In this document: positions 39,001 to 42,000 of the stretch, piece after piece
Layout: the number at the start of each line of letters is the position of its first letter
How positions within the stretch are numbered: the first letter of the stretch is position 1
NCBI RefSeq assembly: GCF_058153355.1
Contig: NZ_CM177019.1
Length of the DNA: 64,000 nucleotides
Direction: 5' to 3' (one strand)
Position numbers: made by a program

Positions 39001-42000
39001 ATCTTCCTGCGGCGAGAATTGCTGGCTTTCCAGCCAGGCCCGACGGGCATTGACATCATTATGACTCAGCAAAGAAACTGTTTGACGCTGGTGGTCGACA
39101 ATGAGCGCCCAGTCGTAGATACCCACAGCCATATCCGGCAGAACGATATCTTGCTGCGCAATTTCTGGCAGTGACTCAAAACGGCGGCCCAGATCGTAGC
39201 CAAACAACCCCAGCGCGCCGCCCTGAAATGGCAAATCTTCGTTATGCGCTGGGCGAATGTCTGCGCGATCCAGCACCTGCTGGAGCACCTGTAGCGGGTC
39301 ATCAGTGGTCGTTGTGCGTTTTTCGCTTTCACTAACAACGGTTTCTTTACCGAAAGTGGTTAAAGTGCAAATCGGCTCGGCGACCACAATATCAAAGCGG
39401 CTATATGGATGATCGGCATAGCCGGAGTGTAAAAGCATCGCCCACGGCAGGTGACTTAAGCGGGAGAAATAAAATTCAGCGGCGTCCTGACGCCAGGGTA
39501 AAGTAATCACAGCGGGAGATAACGTCTTCATCAGTCCTGACTCTACTGGCTATGTGCCGGGTAGCATGAAATAATTAGCGCCAACAATTTAGCAGGAGTT
39601 AACAATGTTTGCAGGTTTACCTTCACTCACCCATGAACAGCAGCAAAAAGCCGTTGAGCGGATCCAGGAACTGATGGCACAGGGGATGAGCAGCGGCCAG
39701 GCAATCGCGCTGGTGGCAGAAGAGTTGCGTGCTAACCATTCCGGTGAGCGGATTGTGGCGCGATTTGAGGATGAAGACGAGTAACACAAAATGATCCGTA
39801 TCGATTTCGTCACGGATGACGCCCTGTATCTTGATACGGATAGCCTCATCGGCTGGGATTTTTCCGGCATGAACTTACATCGTGCCATTTTTGACGGTAC
39901 GTGCCTGGACGGCGCGCGGTTTAATCATGCGCATCTGCGTAATATCAGTTTTATCAACGCGTCCCTGATTGGGGCCGACCTCTCGTCCAGCGCACTGATG
40001 TGTGCCTGGTTCAACAGCGCCGATCTGACCAATTGTAATTTTGCTCAGTCACGACCCATTGATGCTGATTTTAGGCATGCACGACTTTGTGGGGCAGATT
40101 TTACCGACACCGATTTAAGAGGTGCTAATTTTTCATCGACACATCTTCAGAATGTTTGTTTTAACGGGGCGCATTATGACAAACGAACTGTCTGGCCCGC
40201 AGAGTTTTATCCAAGGATTAACGGGGCTGTGTTGGTTGATTGAATTTGGCGGGGTTTATGATGGCAAGAAAAAGACGCTTTTATGTGGTCAACAAAAGCG
40301 CCCTGGTCAATTTTTGCTGATAGAGAATTAACTCAAACCAGTGCTTTGAGTTCTTCCTGCATGTACGACGAAAAGTATTCTGGGTTTTTAATCACAATAC
40401 GTTCACCAGACTCCATTTTTTTTGCCCATCCCACCATTTTTTCCGTGAATCCAGGATTCCAGCCTTCCTGATCGGCTCGCGCAGTAATATCGGCGGAACT
40501 GGCGGGTACACCCAGGTCATGCAAATATTTAAATATTCCCTTCGCCGTACTTTCATTCATAGAACTTGGTGTTGATGCTGATACATCCATGGCACCAATA
40601 AAATCCAGAGCTTTATCTATTACTGCAGGCATATTCTTTTCCTTAAAATTAACCATGTGAACAATAAGGCTATATATGACCTTAAATTGCGTCCAATATC
40701 AAAGGGATTATAACGATATCTCATTAGTTAACCTATTGACATTCAGGTGTTTTAAAGGTAGCAGGTCATAGTCTGTTATGTAGTGATGTACCGCAAATTA
40801 ACTGTAAATAGAAACGCTTCAGCCCAGGTTTTCAAGCAAGAAAGATAGCAAGAAGAAAACCAAAGTAGGCTAATCAGGGAGTTAGCATAATAATTTGATT
40901 TTGCTGATTAATATCAATTGTGTATAAATAACAACGAATCGATAAAAATAAAGAATAAATGACCTGAAGGGGTATTACACATCTAAAACACTGACCGTTT
41001 TATTCAAAGTCGGCCAGTGTTTTCGATAAATTATTGTGCGACTTTTGCCGTGACAGAATTCTTTTTCTGAAATTAAACCGCCGCGATAATCTTAATTTCA
41101 ACCTTGTACTTCGGGTTCATCAAACCCGCTTGTACCGTGCAGCGCACCGGCGCATGACCCGCGACAACCCAGGCATCCCACGCTTTATTCATCGCCGCGA
41201 AGTCGTTTTTATCAGCCAGGAAAATGGTGGCATCCAGAATGCTCGATTTATTGCTGCCCTGTTTTTCCAGCACGGCGTCAATCTGCGCCAGCGTGTTGGC
41301 GGTTTGCTCAAAGGCATTGGCGTCGAGGTTTTCCGGTACACCAGTGTAGTAGAGCGTGTTGTTGTGGATTACTACATCAGACCAGCGGGCTTCAGCATCG
41401 ATACGAACGATAGTCATCATTTTGTCCTCATTATCCTTCCATTTTCGTGCTGCAAAGACTGCCACAATGTGAGGTCGCCGTCACCACTTCAACTGGCGAA
41501 AGCGCCCTCATCCTGACATAATCCCTGTTCAAATCAACAGGGGGTAGTGTGACGGACGATTTTGCACCAGACGGTCAGCTGGCGAAAGCGATACCAGGCT
41601 TTAAGCCGCGAGAACCACAGCGTCAGATGGCGGTAGCCGTCGCCGGGGCGATAGATAAAAGCCAGCCGCTGGTGGTGGAGGCCGGAACCGGTACGGGCAA
41701 AACCTACGCTTACCTGGCCCCTGCGCTGCGGGCGAAAAAGAAAGTCATTATCTCGACCGGTTCAAAAGCGTTGCAGGATCAGCTCTACAGCCGCGATTTG
41801 CCAACGGTTTCAAAGGCGTTGAAATATACGGGCAACGTGGCGTTGCTGAAAGGGCGCTCTAACTACCTCTGCCTCGAACGTCTCGAACAGCAGGCGCTGG
41901 CGGGTGGCGATCTACCGGTACAAATTTTAAGCGATGTGATCCTGCTGCGCTCCTGGTCTAATCAAACAGTCGATGGTGATATCAGCACCTGCGTCAGCGT

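Follow-up and report, generated by a model that had tools for sequence, protein, structure and literature searches.

The palindrome beside the yoaA start codon of Escherichia coli is a known but low-scoring LexA operator

In the E. coli DNA analyzed here (64,000 nucleotides of contig NZ_CM177019.1, assembly GCF_058153355.1; "the window"), a palindrome resembling an SOS box stands almost against the GTG start codon of yoaA, which encodes a DinG-family helicase. Its position raises two questions: whether it places yoaA under LexA control, and why it lies so close to the start codon. A sequence-only reading of the window had proposed LexA control in answer to the first and had offered either a very short leader or a different true start in answer to the second. 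The palindrome is the known LexA operator of yoaA; the interpretation was right and had already been published. With all of the evidence below taken together, we put the probability that the palindrome serves as the LexA operator of the yoaA promoter at about 0.93. The elements around it are as follows.

41073–41417, minus strand: yoaB, divergent from yoaA.
41549–43459, plus strand: yoaA coding sequence, DinG/XPD-family Fe-S helicase of 636 aa with a GTG start (ORF call, annotations, and N-terminal codons kept across the order).
41523–41542, no strand assigned: LexA operator (SOS box), 20-mer CCCTGTTCAAATCAACAGGG with a CTG-N10-CAG core at 41525–41540 (score, published box mutant, and conservation).
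41540–41544, plus strand: Shine-Dalgarno-like GGGGG, overlapping the right flank of the operator and ending 4 nt before the GTG (sequence).

The palindrome, CTGTTCAAATCAACAG, occupies 41525–41540 within the sequence ...CCTGACATAATCCCTGTTCAAATCAACAGGGGGTAGTGTGACGGAC..., and its first base is 24 nt upstream of the GTG at 41549. Its core is CTGT-N8-ACAG and it is therefore also a CTG-N10-CAG site, with CTG (41525–41527) and CAG (41538–41540) spaced by 10 nt; the dyad runs out to the 20-mer CCCTGTTCAAATCAACAGGG at 41523–41542, with 7 bp per arm. The earlier description and coordinates were accurate when checked against the sequence, and the statement that the palindrome ends 9 nt before the GTG is correct as an offset, corresponding to eight intervening bases (41541–41548). 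Its placement inside a short divergent control region also holds, the yoaB/yoaA intergenic region measuring 131 bp from the yoaB boundary at 41417. The window is 100% identical here to E. coli strain EC42405, where the RefSeq (PGAP) annotation names the ORF yoaA, with this GTG as its start, and its divergent neighbor yoaB; the same yoaA start is annotated by RefSeq (PGAP) in K-12.

A LexA matrix was built from 19 classic E. coli operators, each matched exactly upstream of its gene in MG1655, and sites were scored by the heterology-index (HI) formula, in which lower values are closer to consensus. Similarity was judged against the 20-bp consensus TACTG(TA)5CAGTA, with a functional range of HI roughly ≤15. 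The yoaA 20-mer has an HI of 14.27 with the 19-site matrix, which is only marginally within the functional range and worse than all 19 training operators, even with leave-one-out scoring of the latter (the weakest classic sites being recN box 3 at 13.0, polB at 12.9, and dinG at 12.5). The published HI for yoaA is 13, tied with polB as the weakest among the classical SOS genes tabulated (PMC11228462).

Such values are what would be seen if the palindrome were a chance occurrence without a regulatory role and yoaA were induced by damage through another route. The CTGT-N8-ACAG core is present at chance frequency (two in the window versus 0.81 expected, with 17 of 100 shuffles reaching at least two), and CTG-N10-CAG is found 34 times versus about 15.5 expected from base composition. 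First-order Markov simulations yield a mean of 1.1 equally good CTG-N10-CAG sites per 64 kb, and seven other 20-mers in the window match or beat the yoaA box on the LexA matrix. By sequence score alone, the yoaA box is weak and not above chance. The position of the competing sites argues against the chance explanation: the four of the seven that were placed on the annotation (8811, 13360, 15874, and 20743) are all within coding sequences, as are two weaker CTG-N10-CAG sites at 39020 and 50186. These six sites are hosted by rsmF, yebT, prc, yobB, pabB, and yeaV. (The LexA-like site at 8813 falls inside the 20-mer at 8811.)

Published experiments in K-12 bear on the same point. Sutera et al. 2021 (J Bacteriol, PMC8378479) mutated this box, described as CTG(N)10CAG with N10 = TTCAAATCAA and located 24 nt upstream of the ORF. 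A 132-bp intergenic fragment fused to luxCDABE was sufficient for LexA-regulated expression induced by azidothymidine (AZT). Replacement of the CTG and CAG triplets gave constitutively high reporter activity with no further AZT induction, and lexA3, encoding non-cleavable LexA, abolished most of the early induction (PMC8378479). RNA-seq from the same laboratory placed yoaA among the classical SOS genes, with 4.0-fold induction by AZT and a lexA dependence of only 1.6-fold (PMC11228462, which credits the K-12 yoaA LexA box to Courcelle et al. 2001 by citation). In an independent SOS time course (PMC11002266), the yoaA response was rapid, modest, and transient, with a log2 fold change up to 0.68, and yoaB was not induced. 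A 2025 review states that YoaA is LexA-regulated.

The window equals K-12 at every base from 41490 to 41570, and the box sequence being identical, the K-12 result transfers directly. Over the whole intergenic region there is one difference from K-12, at 41435 in the yoaB leader; the yoaB–yoaC spacer is markedly diverged. The proposal that a LexA operator confers DNA-damage control on yoaA is thus upheld by an identical K-12 sequence, a constitutive box mutant, and the block of early induction by lexA3. The matrix check suggested at the outset had a split outcome: the score is poor (HI 13–14.3), yet the site works in K-12. A poor score had also been named as grounds for abandoning the idea, and this would have misled, since the low-scoring site is functional in K-12. 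The modest 1.6-fold lexA dependence remains in favor of a chance palindrome, but repression is lost in the box mutant and early induction largely fails in lexA3 (PMC8378479), and the triplets are conserved beside the promoter as described below; a chance origin is consequently regarded as highly improbable.

Two caveats apply to the published evidence. Comparison of the primer with the wild-type sequence shows that the box mutant contains eight substitutions (CCCTG to GTCCC and CAGGG to GGGAC). Because these include bases directly 3' of the -10 element and in the initially transcribed region, part of the constitutively high phenotype could be a promoter-up effect. An alternative in which K-12 itself has GT...AC flanks in place of the CC...GG of the window, as a compensatory change, was rejected, given that K-12 is identical and the primer itself altered the flanks. 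The literature searched contained no direct assay of LexA binding to the yoaA site (EMSA, footprint, or ChIP). Neither caveat is a serious threat to the assignment, because of the lexA3 result and the phylogenetic footprint.

The closeness of the box to the start codon was approached through the promoter, for which the following elements are proposed.

41493–41499, plus strand: putative weak -35, cTGGCGa (CTGG core conserved in 33 distinct orthologous promoters).
41514–41522, plus strand: extended -10, TGaCATAAT, with TG at 41514–41515 and hexamer CATAAT at 41517–41522; TGACATAAT (conservation).
41528–41531, plus strand: predicted yoaA transcription start, 6–9 nt past the -10 hexamer and within the left half of the operator (promoter geometry).

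The sequence CTGACATAAT is invariant in 36 of 36 sequences (the window, 33 Enterobacteriaceae loci, one Erwinia, and one Pantoea), and TGnCATAAT is present in 76 of 80 Enterobacterales loci, usually 25–33 nt upstream of the start codon. Two readings of the putative -35 are possible, TGGCGA (17-nt spacer) and CTGGCG (18-nt spacer). The CTGG core is weakly conserved, and in the 33 distinct orthologous promoters no block lying between the yoaB promoter and the yoaA -10 is conserved more strongly. A consensus promoter scanner applied to 41000–42000 returned no promoter; the extended -10 escaped it because the scanner demands a better -35 than this promoter has. The yoaA promoter probably relies on the extended -10, with a plausible but poor -35. 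The operator 20-mer begins at 41523, the base directly after the -10, and would cover any start that this -10 directs. No proximal yoaA start is listed in the genome-wide table of Kim et al. 2012 (PMC3415461), obtained under non-inducing conditions; Cappable-seq supplementary files returned no yoaA entry, and a paper on the small RNA RyhB mentions yoaA and contains no 5'-end data.

From this geometry we infer that the closeness of the box to the GTG reflects a very short leader of about 18–21 nt. An in-frame TAA at 41519–41521, inside the -10 hexamer, is followed by nine codons without ATG, GTG, or TTG, and an N-terminal extension of YoaA is therefore excluded. The GTG (TTG in a few species) and the codons for T/A-D-D-F-A are kept across Enterobacterales, and the sequence immediately upstream diverges. 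The two explanations offered earlier for the spacing are separated by these data: the short leader is favored by the conserved start and diverged upstream sequence, whereas a different true start is ruled out by the in-frame TAA and the conserved GTG. A leader beginning at 41529 folds less than its shuffled controls do (z = +1.95), which suggests a short, accessible initiation region.

The opposite side of the intergenic region is occupied by the yoaB promoter.

41448–41498, minus strand: yoaB promoter with a transcription start at 41448 (exact map of a 51-nt string from Kim et al. 2012, PMC3415461, supplementary file 2; 448 reads).

This promoter is back-to-back with that of yoaA and contains an invariant block, AAGACTGCCA, at 41455–41464 (plus-strand sequence); the LexA box is about 85 nt upstream of the yoaB start. 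The conserved TGGCAGTCTTTGCA of the yoaB promoter was also inspected by eye as a possible sigma-54 element and dismissed, its GG and GC being spaced 2 nt too closely.

Conservation was examined in yoaA 5' regions from 80 Enterobacterales species, with upstream sequences anchored for alignment. A CTG-N10-CAG site is found at an identical offset, 2 nt past CTGACATAAT, in 31 of 33 Enterobacteriaceae loci, the left half-site having been lost in two lineages of the family; Cedecea sulfonylureivorans is a species with the left half lost. The N10 spacers diverge into at least seven kinds (TTCAAATCAA, TTCAAATGAA, GCGATTTAAC, TCCAGATTTA, GGAATTTTTC, TGCAAAAATA, TCCAAATAAA, and others), and the HI of the orthologous boxes ranges from 10.2 to 15.0. 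Invariant triplets at a fixed offset around a free spacer are, at the level of alignment, the footprint expected of a dimeric operator, and retention of the triplets beside the -10 in 31 of 33 loci despite a diverged spacer is difficult to attribute to chance. CAGGGGG is kept in most Enterobacteriaceae orthologues, with GAGAG in the Enterobacter cloacae group. Within E. coli, the 38-nt core that starts with the extended -10 and ends with the GTG is unchanged in 5266 of 5426 complete genomes.

The same symmetry could instead serve an RNA (or DNA) hairpin. In transcripts started upstream, a stem of CCCUGUU with AACAGGG(G) would sequester the ribosome-binding site and regulate translation or read-through. 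A 30-nt E. coli segment does fold into an 8-bp stem of -10.2 kcal/mol (z = -3.6), in which four of the five ribosome-binding-site G residues are paired, and symmetric positions 6 and 15 co-vary, with G-C in nine and T-A in seven distinct sequences (there is one exception, and the pattern probably reflects few evolutionary events). Transcripts that would contain both arms might come from a weak distal yoaA start reported 509 nt upstream in K-12 with 12 reads (PMC3415461), but the distal promoter string is not kept in the window strain, where it has at least 15 mismatches and has lost its -10. A transcript from the proximal promoter would lack the left arm and be unstructured, and the 132-bp fragment alone reproduces the regulation (PMC8378479). 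Across species only the LexA-critical positions are symmetric: of 17 distinct sequences, 15 cannot pair positions 2 and 19 and 10 cannot pair positions 7 and 14, which confines the long stem to E. coli and Citrobacter. A conserved role as an RNA hairpin was rejected on these grounds of restricted symmetry and a missing left arm, and a hairpin as the function of the palindrome is considered very unlikely.

With the palindrome taken as a LexA operator, a mechanism can be outlined. The operator (41523–41542) spans the predicted start (about 41528–41531) and reaches the GGGGG ribosome-binding site (41540–44). Because the predicted start falls inside the operator, LexA would occlude initiation, a bound dimer presumably blocking open-complex formation or promoter escape by RNA polymerase through steric occlusion. 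After DNA damage, RecA-stimulated self-cleavage of LexA would clear the promoter, allowing synthesis of a leader of about 20 nt, short and unstructured, with translation from the GTG. The operator appears wedged between the -10, with a C next to it, and the GG of the ribosome-binding site, an arrangement that would fix its outer positions; positions 1 and 19–20 deviate from the LexA consensus and may be conserved for those other signals. Overlapping signals plausibly explain the weakness of the operator. With a poor consensus match (HI 13–14) and fixed outer positions, repression would be leaky and induction early but modest.

LexA cleavage is not the whole story, since late-growth-phase induction by AZT persists in lexA3 (PMC8378479). 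It may be that a second input acts through the LexA operator as well, such as another protein, a sigma-factor switch, or altered occupancy by LexA when growth slows. A second input would account for the late, cleavage-independent phase and for the 4-fold AZT induction set against a 1.6-fold lexA dependence (PMC11228462); the authors of PMC11002266 also suggest "additional transcriptional regulation beyond LexA" for yoaA. Conservation of the non-consensus flanks (C1, G19, and G20) could be read in the same way, but these flanks overlap the base next to the -10 and the ribosome-binding site, which accounts for it. Since expression in the box mutant is already maximal, the failure to see further induction there is of little informative value, and no candidate factor or motif emerged from the orthologue promoter alignments. 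Partial vacancy of a weak operator as LexA3 is diluted or outcompeted would suffice. A second input is accordingly judged unlikely, though it deserves some weight alongside the simple LexA operator.

Outside Enterobacteriaceae, most loci lack the box or have a non-canonical form of it. In Rahnella the CTG-N10-CAG site is poor (HI 17.5), and at the homologous position four Serratia species and Yersinia similis show CTG-N11-CAG. In most Pantoea and Erwinia the sequence reads CTGACATAATTACAG, an N9 form overlapping the -10, and P. stewartii has an N10 version that overlaps the -10 with an HI of 9.3. No LexA-like site was seen in the yoaA promoters of Photorhabdus, Proteus, Pectobacterium, Dickeya, Hafnia, and Budvicia. 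LexA may control yoaA directly in some lineages only, the gene having joined or left the SOS regulon within the order; we hold this tentatively, at somewhat less than even odds, and the literature searched contained no mention of lineage-specific SOS membership for yoaA. If true, the weakness of the E. coli operator would reflect its being fitted into the 26 nt that already separated the -10 from the start codon.

As LexA control through the yoaA box had already been published, no new biology is added to that point. The alignments suggest minor new ones, namely a short-leader promoter conserved across Enterobacterales and a canonical box largely confined to Enterobacteriaceae. The analysis also accounts for the short distance between box and start codon, and it raises a point of caution about how the published mutant was designed. 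The locus is of value for calibration: it provides an experimentally validated operator with a matrix score indistinguishable from chance, recognizable only by its position between the -10 and the ribosome-binding site and by phylogenetic footprinting.

Among known systems, the closest is the K-12 yoaA LexA box, which is the same element, with the same N10 (TTCAAATCAA), the same 24-nt distance, and an operator without any difference from that of the window. The other weak operators, polB (dinA), dinG, and recN box 3, have in common with yoaA a CTG-N10-CAG or near-core, a high HI, and modest LexA-dependent induction, with leave-one-out HI values of 12.5–13.0 compared to the slightly worse 14.3 of yoaA. 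The yoaA operator differs from these in lying directly between the -10 and the ribosome-binding site, with its outer positions shared, and in having a reported second phase of induction independent of LexA cleavage (PMC8378479). The paralogous helicase gene dinG resembles yoaA in having a single weak LexA box just upstream of its ORF (TATTGGCTGTTTATACAGTA, verified in MG1655). The dinG box is asymmetric, its left half containing TTG in place of CTG, whereas the yoaA box keeps both triplets but matches poorly in its spacer and flanks; no sequence homology links the two boxes.

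Natural variants that have lost the yoaA operator, the LexA box at 41523-41542 built on a CTG-N10-CAG core, are found in Cedecea sulfonylureivorans (yoaA locus L047) and Enterobacter sp. R1 (L049). Two nucleotides past the anchor CTGACATAAT, the left half-site in both reads CGCGGGC rather than CACTGGC, and in Enterobacter sp. R1 the right half-site is changed as well, with CTG replacing CAG. Both loci retain an intact -10 element, ribosome-binding site, and start codon, and the prediction is that yoaA should be constitutive in these organisms. A different departure is seen in four Serratia loci (L055, L060, L068, and L077) and in Yersinia similis (L073), where CTG-N11-CAG, 1 base longer than a LexA box, lies ~14 nt 3' of the anchor TGGCATAAT. 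It occupies the site homologous to the E. coli operator, directly 5' of an AGAGA ribosome-binding site, and may represent an operator in decay, one of non-canonical form, or a coincidence.

In Escherichia coli strain SCPM-O-B-8794 (L018), the -10, operator, and start are identical to those of the window. The stretch directly before the -10, comprising the 30 nt 5' of CTGACATAAT, is unrelated to that of the window and the CTGGCG block is missing, which suggests that the -35 side of the yoaA promoter was rearranged or replaced.

On the divergent side of the control region, one feature was delineated:

41448-41498, minus strand: yoaB promoter region, including the conserved block 41455-41464

Across 27 Enterobacteriaceae sequences the block AAGACTGCCA, which reads TGGCAGTCTT on the yoaB strand, is near-invariant, a conservation equal to that of the yoaA -10, and it lies at about -7 to -16 relative to the yoaB transcription start site mapped at 41448 (Kim et al. 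2012, PMC3415461). It is a poor match to a sigma-70 -10. A sigma-54 element was considered and rejected by eye, as the distance from GG to GC falls 2 nt short of what sigma-54 requires.

The yoaB-proximal half of the yoaC-yoaB spacer (40653-41072) has strongly diverged from K-12; the flanking genes share 95-99% identity with K-12. The promoter for the weak distal "yoaA" start site of K-12 lies within this spacer (Kim et al. 2012, PMC3415461), and its TATTAT -10 is lost in the window strain. An inverted repeat is kept with altered arms and is probably the yoaB terminator.

The small information content of the LexA score by itself is illustrated by TCCTGGTTTAAGGTACAGGT, a CTG-N10-CAG 20-mer within the rsmF coding sequence (13360-13379). 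With a heterology index of 11.2 (lower is better), this probable chance site outscores the validated yoaA operator on the LexA matrix.

Within the operator, the symmetric positions 6 and 15 (41528 and 41537) co-vary across orthologues: nine distinct sequences carry CTGG...CCAG, seven carry CTGT...ACAG, and one is mixed. This pattern may be the product of only a few evolutionary events. In the classic E. coli LexA boxes, T6 is often combined with C15.
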